Below, piece after piece: positions 1 through 4,085 of a stretch of 4,085 bases of DNA. The stretch lies in the IMG/VR virus record IMGVR_UViG_2778261570_000019, positions 1 through 4,085 of that record; one strand, written 5' to 3'. The position numbers and the translations under genes were made by a program. Within the stretch, counting starts at the first letter, position 1. Every line of letters starts with the position of its first letter. The DNA is from a virus. Its lineage: Duplodnaviria > Heunggongvirae > Uroviricota > Caudoviricetes. Below the pieces are notes generated by a model. It searched no databases, was not told where the DNA came from, and saw nothing but the letters and a program-made list of their open reading frames with translations.

Positions 1-196
1 ATTCCAGCACCTCAGATAAGCGCCAGACTTTTGTTTGTGGGCCAATACATATTTTCCGTGGAAATTTTCCTTCCTTTTCAAGTAATGCTCTGTGTCTCCT
101 GCCAAGAGCTGTTAACCATGCACATTCATCTTCCTTAATCATCCTGTCGATTGTTTTATCATTTTCAAGTTCTTCACGCGTAACTATTTCAATCAT
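1..196 (-). CDS. AlpA/Vis-family HTH regulator or excisionase, partial (C-terminus lies beyond the window start)
   Basis: Minus-strand frame is open from ATG 196..194 to position 1; it is absent from the ORF track because it runs off the edge. Hand translation: MIEIVTREELENDKTIDRMIKEDECAWLTALGRRHRALLEKEGKFPRKICIGPQTKVWRLSEVLE... The stretch ECAWLTALGRRHRALLEKEGKFP..VWRLSEVLE fits the AlpA-family HTH pattern as I recall it (..TGLSRSTIYRLIKEGKFPKP..GGR.VRW.ESEV.EW). The ATG overlaps the integrase stop by 8 nt (AATGATTGA), with GGTGA about 5 nt upstream. An alternative start is ATG 142..140. Confidence 0.6.
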   Translation of the reverse strand, partial: MIEIVTREELENDKTIDRMIKEDECAWLTALGRRHRALLEKEGKFPRKICIGPQTKVWRLSEVLE

Positions 197-1397
197 TACC
201 GTCACCACTAATTAGCTTATTCAGATAGTCGTACCACCAGTTCATAGCTTCTTTTTTTCTGTCCATATACTGACTTCTGTTATAAACCCCGGCAACACCG
301 CCTAATGTGTGCCCAAGCAACTGTTCAACCACATTATGTTCAAAACCATGATCACTTAGCTTTGTGGCAAACACTCTTCGCATATCATGCGCCGTCCATT
401 TTTCCGAGTGTTTCATCCTTTTCCATGTCTTACCGATAGTTACGCTTGCCGTACACTGACGCATATCAAACCCAATCACATTTTCTTTGTTACCTGTTAT
501 TTTTTTTAACGTAACTAACCAGTTAAACATGCCATCAGGAATCGGTCTGATTATTTCCCTGCCATTTTTGCTATGATCAGCGGGAACGCGCCATAATTTC
601 TTATCAAAATCCCACTCTACCCAGGACGACAGTAATACTTCTGACAGTCGACAACCAAAAACTACCAGGAAACGTAAAATAATTCGGTTTTCATATGATA
701 ATTCGTGATTGTCATAATCAGTATTAATACTTCGCCATAAATCTCTGATTTCATCATCTGTTAAAACCCTGCTTCTTCGCGCAGACTTTTTTCCCACATC
801 ACAGACCTCAAGATCATCAATTTCATGACTAATCGCGTATTTTCTTACCCTACAAAATTTAAGCGCCTGTTTTGATATACGCAACAAAGCTCCGGCCTGT
901 ACAGGTGCTACTTTTTTTATTTTGTCAAAACACTTGATCCACATAGATATAGAGCAATCACTAAGTGGTACATGACCAATCACCGGATAAATATGTTTAC
1001 CAAAGCACTGCCTGATATGTTCTGCTCCCCTACGCTTATCCATTGCATAATTATCAAGCCAGTATTCAAGTGCCTCACGAACGGTAACAGGTTGCAAGGT
1101 GGCTTCCCGTTCAATTTTTATCTGAATCCGTGGATCTCTGCCCTCCGCAAGCCAGGTTCGACACTGATCGCGCATCTCTCTCGCTGATTTGAGACTCAGA
1201 TCAGGATATTTTCCAAGTGTCAGCCAGATGGGCGCGGTTCCCCTTCCCGCCAGTCTGTAAAAGAAAACAAAACTAACACATCCGTATTTACTGACCCGTA
1301 CCGAAAGCCCGTTACCATCAGCGATGGTTTCCTGCCTCTCACTCCTGCGCCCAAGCAGGGAACGAAGTTTTTTATCGCTCAGTTTGTTTAGCGCCAT
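189..1397 (-). CDS. int: Tyrosine site-specific integrase, P4-like family
   Basis: ORF track 189..1463; the likely true start is the internal ATG at 1397..1395 (MALNKLSDKKLRSLL...), since the 22 residues before it are hydrophobic junk. The N-terminus resembles P4-like integrase arm-binding domains (ADGNGLSVRVSKYG..FVFFYR..LTLGKYPDLSLKSAREMRD). Catalytic-domain hallmarks are present: WVEWDFDKKLWRVPADHSK (P4 int has WDEFDFDKSLWRIPA), HDMRRVFATKL (H-x-x-R), and LGHTLGGVAGVYNRSQY (catalytic Tyr). Coordinates include the stop codon at 189..191. Confidence 0.93.
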   Translation of the reverse strand: MALNKLSDKKLRSLLGRRSERQETIADGNGLSVRVSKYGCVSFVFFYRLAGRGTAPIWLTLGKYPDLSLKSAREMRDQCRTWLAEGRDPRIQIKIEREATLQPVTVREALEYWLDNYAMDKRRGAEHIRQCFGKHIYPVIGHVPLSDCSISMWIKCFDKIKKVAPVQAGALLRISKQALKFCRVRKYAISHEIDDLEVCDVGKKSARRSRVLTDDEIRDLWRSINTDYDNHELSYENRIILRFLVVFGCRLSEVLLSSWVEWDFDKKLWRVPADHSKNGREIIRPIPDGMFNWLVTLKKITGNKENVIGFDMRQCTASVTIGKTWKRMKHSEKWTAHDMRRVFATKLSDHGFEHNVVEQLLGHTLGGVAGVYNRSQYMDRKKEAMNWWYDYLNKLISGDGND

Positions 1398-1402
1398 GTG
1401 AT

Positions 1403-2596
1403 TTATAACCCGTTTTTGCAATACACAGTGCAATACACAAATGATGAAAACAGCCAGAACCATCCAGAAAAAACAAAAACGACGAACAAGAAAAAATCTT
1501 TTTCTTTCATTTGGTTACTAAAAAAATCAGGACAGGTCGCACTGTTGTTACGGCGTGATGTTACTTTCTTCGTGAAAAAATTCACCCGCGCTGAAACCTG
1601 CTCCTTCGCTTTTTTCGCCAGACGACGCAGATCATCCCAGCGTTTACAGATGCCCAGGCCGGGATTCGCTTTCTGCCAGACCGTTTCATCAAACGGATCA
1701 TCTCCCTCATCGAGCGTGTAAATGATCGCAAAGTAGGAGTCGTCTTTTACTGCGCCCTCCACGTTGCTGTTATAGCCACGCAATACCTTAATGGCGTAAT
1801 CACGCTGCTCGTAACAGATCCCTTCCTTGTTAAACCCTGCAGTGGTGATACCAAATAACAGGGACTGCAGACGGGCACCGGTTGCCGTTTCCAGAACATC
1901 CCACACATCACGGGTTTTATGTGCATGCAGCTCATCAATAATGGCGCAGTGGATGTTCAGACCGTCCAGGTTGTTTGCATCCGAGGAAAGCGGTTCAAAT
2001 TTTGATGCGCTCTGCTCCTGGTAAATCGCCAGCTTGTTGAAATCAAACAATCGCCCGAGTGTCGACCGGGCTTTTCTGACCATATTTTTGGCGTCTTCAA
2101 ACACAATTCTGGCCTGGTCACGCGTGGTTGCGGCTGAATACACCTCAGCACCGCCTTCACCATCTGCCCCCGTCATATACAGGCCGATACCCGATGACAG
2201 GGTTGATTTTGCGTTTTTACGGGCGACTTCGTTGTACGCCGTACGGAACCGGCGCACCATCACCGGACGTCCGCTGCCATCGCTGCGCATGACAACTTCC
2301 CCGGTCTCTTCATTGACCAGCGGAATGACAAAACCAAAAATATTAATGAGGATAAATACATGCCAGTCCATCAGTTCAATGGGCTGGCCTGCCAGCGCCC
2401 CTTTCACATGGGGCACAAATTTGTAGAAATTCAGGATGTGCTGCGCACGGGGTTCACTAAAATAAATCCCCCGCTCTTCGCCGTACTTCAGATCATCAAG
2501 AAAACGCTGGCAGGCCAGACGGACAAATTCGCCAGCGACAATTTCTCCTGCAACAACACGTTCGGCGTAGCGGATCCCGTCAGCCACTTTTGCCAT
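1403..2596 (-). CDS. terL: Phage terminase large subunit, N-terminal ATPase portion; 3'-truncated or disrupted, nuclease domain absent (possible pseudogene)
   Basis: 397-aa ORF. N-terminus MAKVADGIRYAERVVAGEIVAGEFVRLACQRFLDDL.. and KGALAGQPIELMDWHVF are typical of HK97-like large terminases. Walker A-like VARKNAKST and Walker B-like IHCAIIDELH are present, as is WQKANPGLG. Resemblance ends near NFFTKKV (about 1562..1580); the last ~52 codons read through the AT-rich int upstream region (KEKDFFLFVVFVFSGWFWLF..) and stop at 1403. Full-length homologs are about 550 aa. ATG 2596..2594 overlaps the terS stop by 1 nt. Confidence 0.85.
   Translation of the reverse strand: MAKVADGIRYAERVVAGEIVAGEFVRLACQRFLDDLKYGEERGIYFSEPRAQHILNFYKFVPHVKGALAGQPIELMDWHVFILINIFGFVIPLVNEETGEVVMRSDGSGRPVMVRRFRTAYNEVARKNAKSTLSSGIGLYMTGADGEGGAEVYSAATTRDQARIVFEDAKNMVRKARSTLGRLFDFNKLAIYQEQSASKFEPLSSDANNLDGLNIHCAIIDELHAHKTRDVWDVLETATGARLQSLLFGITTAGFNKEGICYEQRDYAIKVLRGYNSNVEGAVKDDSYFAIIYTLDEGDDPFDETVWQKANPGLGICKRWDDLRRLAKKAKEQVSARVNFFTKKVTSRRNNSATCPDFFSNQMKEKDFFLFVVFVFSGWFWLFSSFVYCTVYCKNGL
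1417..1440. repeat. Tandem direct repeat, 2 x 12 bp (tgcaatacacag / tgcaatacacaa), 20-43 bp upstream of the int start codon
   Basis: Read directly: 1417..1428 tgcaatacacag and 1429..1440 tgcaatacacaa, 11 of 12 identical and adjacent. On the int coding strand it lies just upstream of TTATAAAT and the ATG. Possible integrase arm-type or regulator binding sites. Confidence 0.7.
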
Positions 2597-3078
2597 CAGT
2601 CTCTCGCTTTTAAAAGTTCCGCCAGCGGATCAACATCATCCGGTCCGGCGGTATTTACTTTCGCCCGGCTTGCCGGTGACATACCAAACTCTGCAAGCAT
2701 CGCCCGGATCCGCTTCCAGGCATCCGCTTTCATCGCAGCAGCCGGGTGTGCCTTAATCAGCACATCACCGTTCTGCGTTTTCGTGCGGTAGGTATACCCC
2801 TCAACATCGAGTGTTTCGCAGTGATGCCGGTATTCGGTGTAGGCTTCCACCAGTAACTCGAGTGCACGCGCATCAAGCTGAGAAATGATCCCTTCCGCAT
2901 TCAGTTCTTCCGCCATTCGCCTGAACCAGTACTTCCCCTGCGACCCTAAATGTTGCGGAATTTTAGGGAGACATTTTTCATCCTTTTTAGCGGTTTTTTT
3001 TGGGTCTTTAACGGGGCGCTTTGAGGGGTTGCCTCGTATCAAATGCAGGCGTGGCGGGGTTTTCAGGGGTCCCGGCAT
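2596..3078 (-). CDS. terS: Phage terminase small subunit, P27-family-like
   Basis: 160-aa ORF starting MPGPLKTPPRLHLIRGNPSKRPVKDP.., with AEFGMSPASRAKV near the C-terminus, as in P27-family small terminases. It sits immediately upstream of terL with a stop/start overlap (TGATG) and downstream of an HNH gene, the conserved cos-phage synteny. Confidence 0.85.
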   Translation of the reverse strand: MPGPLKTPPRLHLIRGNPSKRPVKDPKKTAKKDEKCLPKIPQHLGSQGKYWFRRMAEELNAEGIISQLDARALELLVEAYTEYRHHCETLDVEGYTYRTKTQNGDVLIKAHPAAAMKADAWKRIRAMLAEFGMSPASRAKVNTAGPDDVDPLAELLKARD

Positions 3079-3224
3079 AATCGGTTTTACCTATCAATCA
3101 TTTAATCACATTCCAAAAAAAAGTTTTCGAACCTGCGGCGATGCGAGGAAAGGTCAGGCGGCGGTCCCGGACAGCCAGGGTTGCAGGGATTTGACCCGCC
3201 CCTCCCCACAAGTGAGAATAATTA
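3079..3224. other. HNH-terS intergenic region; candidate cos / terminase recognition region (hypothesis)
   Basis: 146-bp non-coding gap between HNH and terS, where HK97-like phages carry cos. It contains a GC-rich tract aggcggcggtcc (3155..3166) sharing the GGCGGCG core with lambda cosN (GGGCGGCGACCT), a C-rich run cccgcccctcccc (3195..3207), and an imperfect inverted repeat (ggcggcggtc / gacccgcc). Confidence 0.25.
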
Positions 3225-3575
3225 TCACCTGATTCGTTCGCGCGCTGTTTTCGCTTTGTGGCAGGGCCAGCACAGACTCTGCAGGTTGCTGTCTGTGTCT
3301 GTTCCGCCATGCGCTTTCGGGATGATGTGGTCGACAGTTTTCGCCTCGCTCACCACACCGACACGCAGACACAACTGACACAGACCTTTATCGCGCTTCA
3401 GAATACGGGCACGAATCACCGTCCATTTTGAGCCATAGCCACGCTGGTGGCGGCTCAGTCCGCGCTGGTGCTGCACCCAGCCTTCACTCCGATGTTTATC
3501 ACAGTAGCCAGAGCTGTCTGTTGTTGTGCCTGCGCAGCCTCGCTTACGACATGCGCGGGGGATTTGTGATGGCAT
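3225..3575 (-). CDS. HNH endonuclease, phage packaging-associated (HK97 gp74-like)
   Basis: ORF track 3225..3611 begins at a GTG; the preferred start is ATG 3575..3573 (MPSQIPRACRKRGCAGTT..), which has GAGGAG 9 nt upstream. It has a Cys-rich N-terminus (C..GC..C.KH) and an HNH motif DHIIPKAHGGTDTDSNLQSLCWPCHKAK. Position directly upstream of terS supports the call. Confidence 0.85.
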   Translation of the reverse strand: MPSQIPRACRKRGCAGTTTDSSGYCDKHRSEGWVQHQRGLSRHQRGYGSKWTVIRARILKRDKGLCQLCLRVGVVSEAKTVDHIIPKAHGGTDTDSNLQSLCWPCHKAKTARERIR

Positions 3576-3617
3576 AGAATTTCGCTCCTCTAAAAAATAT
3601 TCTGCTCTCACCGTCGG

Positions 3618-3800
3618 TCAGTTCTGCATACACTGCCGGACACTATCAACAATTTCGCAGACCTGAGAAGCTGTATCGAAAAGCTGACGCGCCTTATCCA
3701 GGCTGACGCATCCCACCAGGAAAAAAGGCACCAGTATCGCTACCAGTGCCCATTTCGCCGTCGTTCGCGGCATTCTGTGTGTCCAGTGTTTTCGCTTCAT
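3618..3800 (-). CDS. Small predicted lipoprotein (about 60 aa), hypothetical
   Basis: ORF track 3618..3815 (TTG start); the preferred start is ATG 3800..3798 with GGTGG about 7 nt upstream. N-terminus MKRKHWTHRMPRTTAKWALVAILVPFFLVGC has a basic n-region, a hydrophobic core and a lipobox (LVGC). The mature part is about 30 aa with 3 Cys and no Pro. Codon usage looks enterobacterial (CTG-rich). Its stop is 40 bp upstream of the HNH start, so it is probably co-transcribed. Confidence 0.45.
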   Translation of the reverse strand: MKRKHWTHRMPRTTAKWALVAILVPFFLVGCVSLDKARQLFDTASQVCEIVDSVRQCMQN

Positions 3801-3972
3801 CTCACTATCCACCAATCAATCCGGATAAGCTCAATACTCGCCAGGCGGTGGAAATGAAAATGGCAACCAACATTGCTGAAAATGAAAGGCCAACAACCAC
3901 ACAGAGAATTCGCGCCAGTTTTATAATGCTATCTGACATATTTACCCCTGCCCCACTTACGATTTCACAGCA

Positions 3973-4085
3973 ATGATCAATTTTGCCATCCCATACAGCA
4001 TCGGAGACACAGTGATACCGACCGCCACCTACTTAATGGCAAAAGCCACCGCTCTGCTGATGTCATCAGTTACAGGCGCTTTCAA
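3973..4085 (+). CDS. Hypothetical protein, partial (runs off the window end); low-confidence call
   Basis: Plus-strand frame is open from ATG 3973 to the window end: MINFAIPYSIGDTVIPTATYLMAKATALLMSSVTGAF... Codons are dominated by C/G-ending preferred enterobacterial codons (CTG, ACC, GCC, ATC). No good SD precedes ATG 3973; an internal GTG 4012 has GGAG 5 nt upstream. It conflicts with a short minus-strand partial frame ending at 4029, which has poorer codon usage. Confidence 0.2.
   Translation, partial: MINFAIPYSIGDTVIPTATYLMAKATALLMSSVTGAF

Follow-up and report, generated by a model that had tools for sequence, protein, structure and literature searches.

The DNA examined here, a window of 4,085 nt, carries at positions 1398–1600 a junction at which the large terminase subunit gene (terL) of a prophage gives way to the integrase end of another mobile element. 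We are highly confident that this junction is the attL of a phage-inducible chromosomal island (PICI) of the helper-embedded type (HE-PICI), from the published site group A:Terminase_1:246. HE-PICIs were described as a class of 491 satellites that occupy 14 sites within prophage late genes and are co-oriented with those genes (Tommasini, Mageeney and Williams, NAR Genom Bioinform 2023, PMC10111431), and A:Terminase_1:246 is included in the site list of that work. The element class, the site, the att core and the arm motif were all published in 2023, and the window introduces no new principle. An earlier note, made from the sequence of the window, had proposed that terL was split by an int-alpA element for which a site within the gene served as attB. 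All of the checks that the note proposed agree with this reading, and its remark that such an insertion would be unusual is outdated, as HE-PICIs at the exact terL site are on record (PMC10111431).

The genes for an HNH endonuclease, TerS, TerL, integrase and AlpA lie in that order in the window, all on the minus strand, and each was confirmed by Pfam. The HNH gene (3225–3611, minus strand; Pfam HNH, E = 4.8e-17; PGAP annotation) belongs to the HK97-type packaging module of the helper prophage, and the start assigned by PGAP to its ortholog corresponds to position 3575. It is followed by the helper gene terS (2596–3078, minus strand), which encodes a small terminase subunit of the P27 family (Pfam Terminase_4, E = 1.7e-25; PGAP annotation). 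Within window 3580–4085, related prophages lose homology at 3580, 3800 or 3845, depending on the genome; because these end points vary, the lysis and packaging modules are taken to meet here at a mosaic boundary. A small open reading frame on the minus strand (3815–3618) encodes a product with a lipobox-like LVGC and has the appearance of a small lipoprotein. In Escherichia coli tcmA_3, an IS3-family element is located just past the position equivalent to window 3845.

The terL reading frame extends on the minus strand from 2596 to 1403 and encodes 397 amino acids. Pfam recognizes a full TerL_ATPase domain at residues 112–268, in agreement with the earlier observation that the ATPase motifs are kept. 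Residues 283–345 match TerL_nuclease, with only profile positions 2–64 of 286 represented. The genuine 5′ part of the helper terL (1568–2596, minus strand; Pfam, PGAP, and collinearity with full-length terL) comprises codons 1–343, and thus the ATPase domain plus the first ~60 residues that match the nuclease-domain model. PGAP labels the orthologs of this part ‘terminase large subunit, incomplete, missing C-terminus’. The loss of family resemblance, placed by the earlier note near codon 345 (nt 1562), is real, but the break itself falls on the final base of codon 343 (window 1568). Past the break, the frame continues through 54 non-homologous residues to a stop at 1405–1403 and, as had been noticed, it does so in AT-rich sequence, with a GC content of 0.357 in 1398–1568 versus 0.518 in the N-terminal part of terL. 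The other two minus-strand frames both reach stops within 1500–1560, as the earlier reading by hand had found, so a local frameshift is rejected.

Uninterrupted versions of the gene are common. Of 5426 complete E. coli genomes, 901 contain the 400-nt junction rebuilt from the two terL halves without interruption; strain E9 carries it at 100% identity. When window 1400–1740 was used as the query, ~900 genomes aligned only from 1569 or 1575 upward, and these alignments, which start exactly at the att core described below, locate the breakpoint with single-base precision. Over its whole length, the rejoined terL is collinear, at 95–96.5% identity, with the corresponding gene in 11 sequenced Escherichia phages, including phi467 and Evi. 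The HNH-terS-terL-portal locus that the earlier note had suggested looking for exists in uninterrupted form in related genomes and phages. Furthermore, the int-alpA side of the window gave 0 matches among 50,697 phage records. The intact terL of these genomes and phages, together with the absence of int-alpA from phage records, identifies the interrupted gene as the normal terminase gene of circulating temperate phages, to which the int-alpA element is foreign.

These data also bear on the idea that a short TerL is natural, such that relatives end near codon 345 and int-alpA is a native set of phage genes downstream. Nothing beyond the reading frame running on to 1403 speaks for this idea, whereas the match to the nuclease model breaks off at position 64 of 286, the 585-amino-acid form occurs in ~900 genomes and 11 phages, and no phage record holds the int-alpA segment. 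We give this explanation practically no credence.

Homology to intact terL ends at a core of 7–8 bp, TCACGAA(G), at window 1575–1568. This att core, or crossover region (TCACGAAG; 1568–1575, minus strand), covers terL codons 341–343 (F-T-K), and the identical 8-mer is found at the attR of the tcmA_3 locus (3744–3737 in locus coordinates). On the terL strand, attL reads ...GTGAATTTTT-TCACGAAG-AAAGTAACATC..., and the attR of the tcmA_3 locus reads ...GAAATATTC-TCACGAAG-CACATGAATGTATGG.... The DNA between the core and int (1398–1567, minus strand) is the satellite arm of attL, equivalent to the P′ arm of attP on the int-proximal side. This AT-rich, non-coding arm has no homology to intact terL. 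A motif search located in this arm the doubled motif tgTGTATTGCactgTGTATTGC (1418–1439, minus strand), which is presumably a binding site for the arm domain of Int or for AlpA. Read along the minus strand (1439–1418), the motif starts 133 nt downstream of the core centre, and in the tcmA_3 and 042 loci a second copy at the attR end terminates 79 nt upstream of the core centre. Exactly two occurrences are present in each of these 43-kb loci.

Window 1100–1800 was scanned for promoters and terminators: the minus strand contained no terminator, and the interval from the terL break to int contained no promoter. The lack of a terminator fits, if weakly, with transcription reading through from the late operon. 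With Rfam, the window returned no match, and a scan of the 042 locus at gathering thresholds revealed neither C4 nor isrK immunity RNA in the satellite.

The window holds attL only, and the other end of the element was therefore sought in the related loci of E. coli tcmA_3 (L001) and E. coli 042 (L002). Loci of O157:H7 F7508 (L003) and E. coli GF31 (L004; NZ_CP172152.1) were also examined. Across the int-terL junction, 36 complete E. coli genomes align to the window, and the breakpoint is the same in all of them. The closest full-length match is tcmA_3, with 99.5% identity over window 1–3845. In this strain the missing 3′ part of terL is found at a distance of 17.8 kb and follows the same 8-bp core. 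Its annotation, in tcmA_3 and in 042 alike, is ‘TerL endonuclease subunit, missing N-terminus’. In 042, the missing part lies 15.2 kb away behind TTACCAA, a synonymous 7-bp variant that forms the core at both ends of the 042 element. The cores of the two strains differ by two bases, and each is matched between attL and attR. The core-to-core distance is 17,831 bp in tcmA_3, including an IS21-family insertion, versus 15,245 bp in 042. In both strains, joining the halves at the core generates a 1758-nt open frame for an intact 585-amino-acid TerL with complete ATPase and nuclease domains (Pfam). Both the far terL half and the direct repeat that the earlier note had told its readers to seek are thus in place. 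The far junction of the window's own element is expected to have the same structure, judging from these near-identical loci in other genomes.

As an alternative, the earlier note had considered that two elements were fused by a deletion or rearrangement. On this view, an illegitimate event would have joined an unrelated int-alpA island to the remnant of a prophage, and the truncation would be a scar rather than an att junction. Prophage regions of E. coli are often mosaic and decayed, and GF31 has such deletions in the same composite. However, the missing part of terL sits exactly at the opposite end of the element, where it follows the same core and rejoins in frame, in two strains whose cores differ by two bases. 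The breakpoint is moreover identical in the 36 genomes, and the junction corresponds to published attL and attR alignments. A repeat of 8 bp by itself could have arisen by chance, but its presence at both homology breakpoints with in-frame rejoining could not. On this evidence we reject such a deletion or fusion as exceedingly improbable.

The complete loci reveal what lies beyond the left edge of the window. In tcmA_3, alpA is followed by a second HTH gene and then by a Bro-N gene that is broken by the IS21-family element. Next are Icd-like, DUF4222, DUF927 primase, SSB and ProQ genes, followed by genes for a capsid protein, a partial protease, a frameshifted portal and a head-tail connector, and then by HNH, terS, a full terL and a small open reading frame that precedes the terL 3′ fragment. 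The portal, protease and capsid genes of the prophage come after this fragment. The 042 locus has the same gene arrangement without the IS and the frameshifts, and its host prophage is a complete-looking lambdoid that adjoins tRNA-Ser and mtfA.

The IS21-family element (IS100) in the Bro zone, the frameshifted portal and the partial prohead protease of the tcmA_3 satellite (L001:8791–9348, 7550–8785 and 17233–19038) indicate that this copy is probably non-functional. GF31 carries a decayed composite with a large deletion (locus 15350–21065) in a prophage located between potB and potC. Its satellite stops after the Icd-like gene and is fused to a tail-fibre fragment, while the helper side has lost terS and keeps a terL 5′ part that is cut short at either end. 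GF31 retains attL, int and both AlpA-family genes, and its attL is 100% identical to window 1400–1740. Some composites, including those of tcmA_3 and GF31, are decayed and probably immobile.

The integrase gene (189–1397, minus strand) encodes a 402-amino-acid tyrosine integrase of P4-type architecture, with Arm-DNA-bind_3 at residues 6–92 and Phage_integrase at residues 211–377 (Pfam). The gene starts at an ATG at 1397, 171 nt past the break, which bears out the earlier placement of a P4-family integrase in the same orientation shortly beyond terL, and PGAP assigns the equivalent start in tcmA_3. An in-frame upstream ATG at 1463 would give a reading frame of 424 amino acids, and the PGAP call in E. 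coli 042 is longer still, at 445 amino acids. The start at 1397 (MALNKLSDKKL...) is likely the true one. Terminase/int fusion calls at this junction have been described as an occasional product of annotation pipelines (PMC10111431). The next gene, alpA (1–196, minus strand; Pfam Phage_AlpA, E = 2.2e-7), encodes an AlpA-family regulator and excisionase. It is 5′-complete, with its 3′ end beyond the left edge of the window, and it overlaps the end of int by 8 nt (189–196), as the earlier note had seen; its ortholog is a 222-nt gene in tcmA_3 and 042 (PGAP).

Several independently described properties of the HE-PICI class can be compared with these loci. The att identities given for A:Terminase_1:246 are ‘tcacgaa’, ‘tcacgaag’, ‘ttaccaa’ or ‘tcacaaa’ (PMC10111431), and both the window core TCACGAA(G) and the 042 core TTACCAA are among them. 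A longer block, ‘aattttataacaaag’, is the att identity given for Arsenophonus in the same group (PMC10111431). A doubled motif unique to HE-PICIs, tgTGTATTGCantgTGTATTGCa, was reported ~81 bp upstream and 132 ± 2 nt downstream of the attP centre (PMC10111431), and the doubled TGTATTGC motif is present at both arms of the loci studied here at roughly these distances. Four window matches, CP016546.1, CP015229.1, CP027447.1 and AGTD01000001.1, are listed in the table of the published work, and the element boundaries given for these four genomes map to window positions 1571–1572. By eye, a published attL alignment such as that of Eco11232.16 is one base off the window over ~160 nt.

Gene organization provides a further comparison. 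The two halves of terL flank the element and rejoin to the intact protein, and int, alpA and the primase gene are co-oriented with the interrupted late gene. The integrase gene adjoins attL in the window, in tcmA_3 and in 042. In the latter two loci, the zones are ordered Integration (int/alpA), Bro (Bro-N), Replication (DUF927 primase/SSB) and Late (capsid through terL), and the window holds the Integration zone only. Within a single HE-PICI clade, integrases sort into coherent subclades by late-gene site group, and this clade falls in a larger one that includes P4 (PMC10111431). As a proxy for phylogenetic placement, the window int is contained in one-piece alignments, at 95–97% DNA identity, to four published A_Terminase_1_246 HE-PICI elements. 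The target gene and codon, the core, the doubled TGTATTGC motif and its spacing, the orientation relative to the late operon and the int-alpA-Bro-primase-late organization are thus all the same as in the published site group. We see no essential difference, and the window represents one more copy.

A site-specific event could still be accidental. According to this explanation the insertion would be off-target or a dead end, with no evolved link to a prophage that is simply inactivated, such that other helpers would be needed. Off-target integrations by HE-PICI integrases are reported (PMC10111431), several composites are decayed, and none of the prophages resident in its strain induces the prototype of the capsid-forming PICIs (cf-PICIs). 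In addition, the attP junction predicted for the excised satellite, ...AAATATTC-TCACGAAG or TTACCAA-GAAAGTAACATC... (attR arm, core, attL arm), is absent from the contigs searched: its exact 23–27-mer had no match in viral contigs, metagenome contigs or species-representative genomes. However, the same site is occupied in 36 complete genomes, in prophages at different chromosomal loci: tRNA-Ser/mtfA in 042, potB-potC in GF31 and near yecN in tcmA_3. Two synonymous core variants exist, each matched between attL and attR, the split gene is still intact once rejoined, and the site-group integrases form the coherent subclades noted above. We therefore judge an accidental insertion to be very unlikely.

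The content of the satellite is best seen in 042, where Pfam identifies Phage_capsid, Peptidase_S78, Phage_portal, HNH, Terminase_4, TerL_ATPase with TerL_nuclease, DUF927 and Bro-N. A connector match to Phage_connect_1 scores 21.0 bits, just under the curated Pfam cutoff of 21.2. No tail or lysis product is annotated inside the 042 element. At 15,245 bp without tail or lysis genes, this element corresponds to the ~10–15 kb described for cf-PICIs, and it combines the PICI backbone with genes for capsid, protease, portal, connector, HNH, TerS and TerL, which is the cf-PICI gene set. The window's own element presumably carries the same set, as its near-identical relatives do. The attachment site is element-specific but lies inside a prophage gene, and in this respect the case falls outside the search criterion of Alqurainy et al., which asks for an attachment site of the element's own that prophages never occupy. 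The attB sites of cf-PICIs were reported as chromosomal (Alqurainy et al. 2023; bioRxiv 10.1101/2022.09.08.507074). As a class, cf-PICIs are characterized by building small capsids of their own, packaging their own DNA and using the tails of a helper.

The 042 element (042 locus 6331–21576) was compared with a 15.5-kb island that lies between phoQ and roxA in O157:H7 F7508 (locus 10817–26352). The two are collinear over 9.25 of 15.2 kb with 71–89% nucleotide identity, and they have terminase, head and primase modules in common. In contrast, their int ends are essentially unrelated, sharing only an 89-bp match. In size and content the island agrees with what was published on the cf-PICI prototype EcCIEDL933, and presumably it is that element. 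The 042 element resembles EcCIEDL933 in size, in gene content and in the absence of tail and lysis genes. It differs from the O157:H7 island in lacking an annotated head-closure gene, and in that the island is located between chromosomal genes whereas the window-type element resides inside a prophage gene. The shared late and replication modules, coupled with the differing integration module, suggest that exchange of the integrase module may move the same satellite chassis between chromosomal and prophage targets.

The earlier note had likened the int-alpA layout to that of P4-like satellites and PICIs. The resemblance to PICIs stands, and with P4 the element shares a P4-type integrase (Arm-DNA-bind_3 plus catalytic domain) and an AlpA-like gene after int. 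Its content is not P4-like, however, as the window-type element has its own HK97-type head (capsid) and terminase genes and targets a prophage gene. Neither annotation nor Pfam placed sid, psu or delta, the genes with which P4 hijacks the capsids of P2-type helpers on which it depends, in the gene tables of the tcmA_3 and 042 loci. The published HE-PICI work does not call A:Terminase_1:246 elements capsid-forming PICIs, and it cites the cf-PICI study as showing late-gene gain (PMC10111431). No paper that explicitly links HE-PICIs with cf-PICIs was found in the literature searched. Our small addition is that the satellites at the terL site have the cf-PICI gene set, and that their main difference from the O157:H7 island is the integration module.

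Two other features of the satellites were observed. In the terL of the satellite itself, the site homologous to the helper core reads CTCACCAAG (042 locus 7560–7590, codons ~308–310; the same in tcmA_3). This sequence has a single mismatch to either variant of the helper core, TCACGAAG or TTACCAAG, and is flanked by different bases. The iteron (T)GCGGGTTA occurs in two clusters in the tcmA_3 locus (L001:4040–4195 and L001:12664–12738). One cluster is just downstream of the DUF927 primase gene, where the origin of a PICI is expected. The second cluster, situated between the terL of the satellite and attR, contains copies in both direct and inverted orientation and could serve as a second origin or as a cos or terminase recognition region.

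The loci thus show a satellite of 15–18 kb that was inserted by its own P4-type tyrosine integrase at the 7–8 bp core in codons 341–343 of terL, in a lambdoid prophage with HK97-type head genes. The satellite is co-oriented with the late operon, and the insertion parts the ATPase region of TerL from its nuclease region. A possible further course of events can be drawn from the HE-PICI work and from general tyrosine-recombinase biology. Before excision, the helper would be without a complete large terminase, and the satellite would be replicated, and perhaps transcribed, passively with the prophage. After induction of the prophage, Int and AlpA would recombine the two identical cores, releasing a circular satellite and restoring terL exactly. 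The excised satellite may then package itself with its own terminase and its own capsids, and take mainly tails from the helper. For 11capE alone, an HE-PICI in a capsid gene, the experiment as described in the published account showed excision of the composite, replication of the composite and then excision of the satellite, with the late gene restored (PMC10111431).

The satellite TerL and the interrupted helper TerL are only 32% identical. Because these satellites bring their own HNH-TerS-TerL, the insertion may do more than merely delay the helper. Specifically, terL-targeting HE-PICIs might be cf-PICIs whose insertion acts as a cis packaging block that makes the helper a tail donor, a proposal that we consider speculative and rather doubtful. 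If it were true, the only complete terminase in the cell until excision would be that of the satellite. Also, the late operon of the helper might express a 343-residue ATPase fragment with the 54-residue tail, which could be non-productive or dominant-negative.

In active lysogeny, prophage-like elements interrupt host genes and excise to restore them, as at comK in Listeria and with the skin element in sigK of Bacillus subtilis. The terL-site satellites share with the comK prophage and skin the splitting of a gene by a site-specific element whose precise excision restores it, an arrangement that can act as a switch. In active lysogeny, however, the divided gene is bacterial, whereas here the HE-PICI splits a gene of the helper phage, and the switch would act within the lytic cycle.

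The window is a clean further example of this arrangement, mapped to the base. For annotation, loci of this kind should be called nested elements and not ‘truncated terminase’ pseudogenes. More broadly, an essential gene of one mobile element can provide the attachment site for a second, and the ability of the helper to package its DNA would thereby be tied to excision of the satellite.
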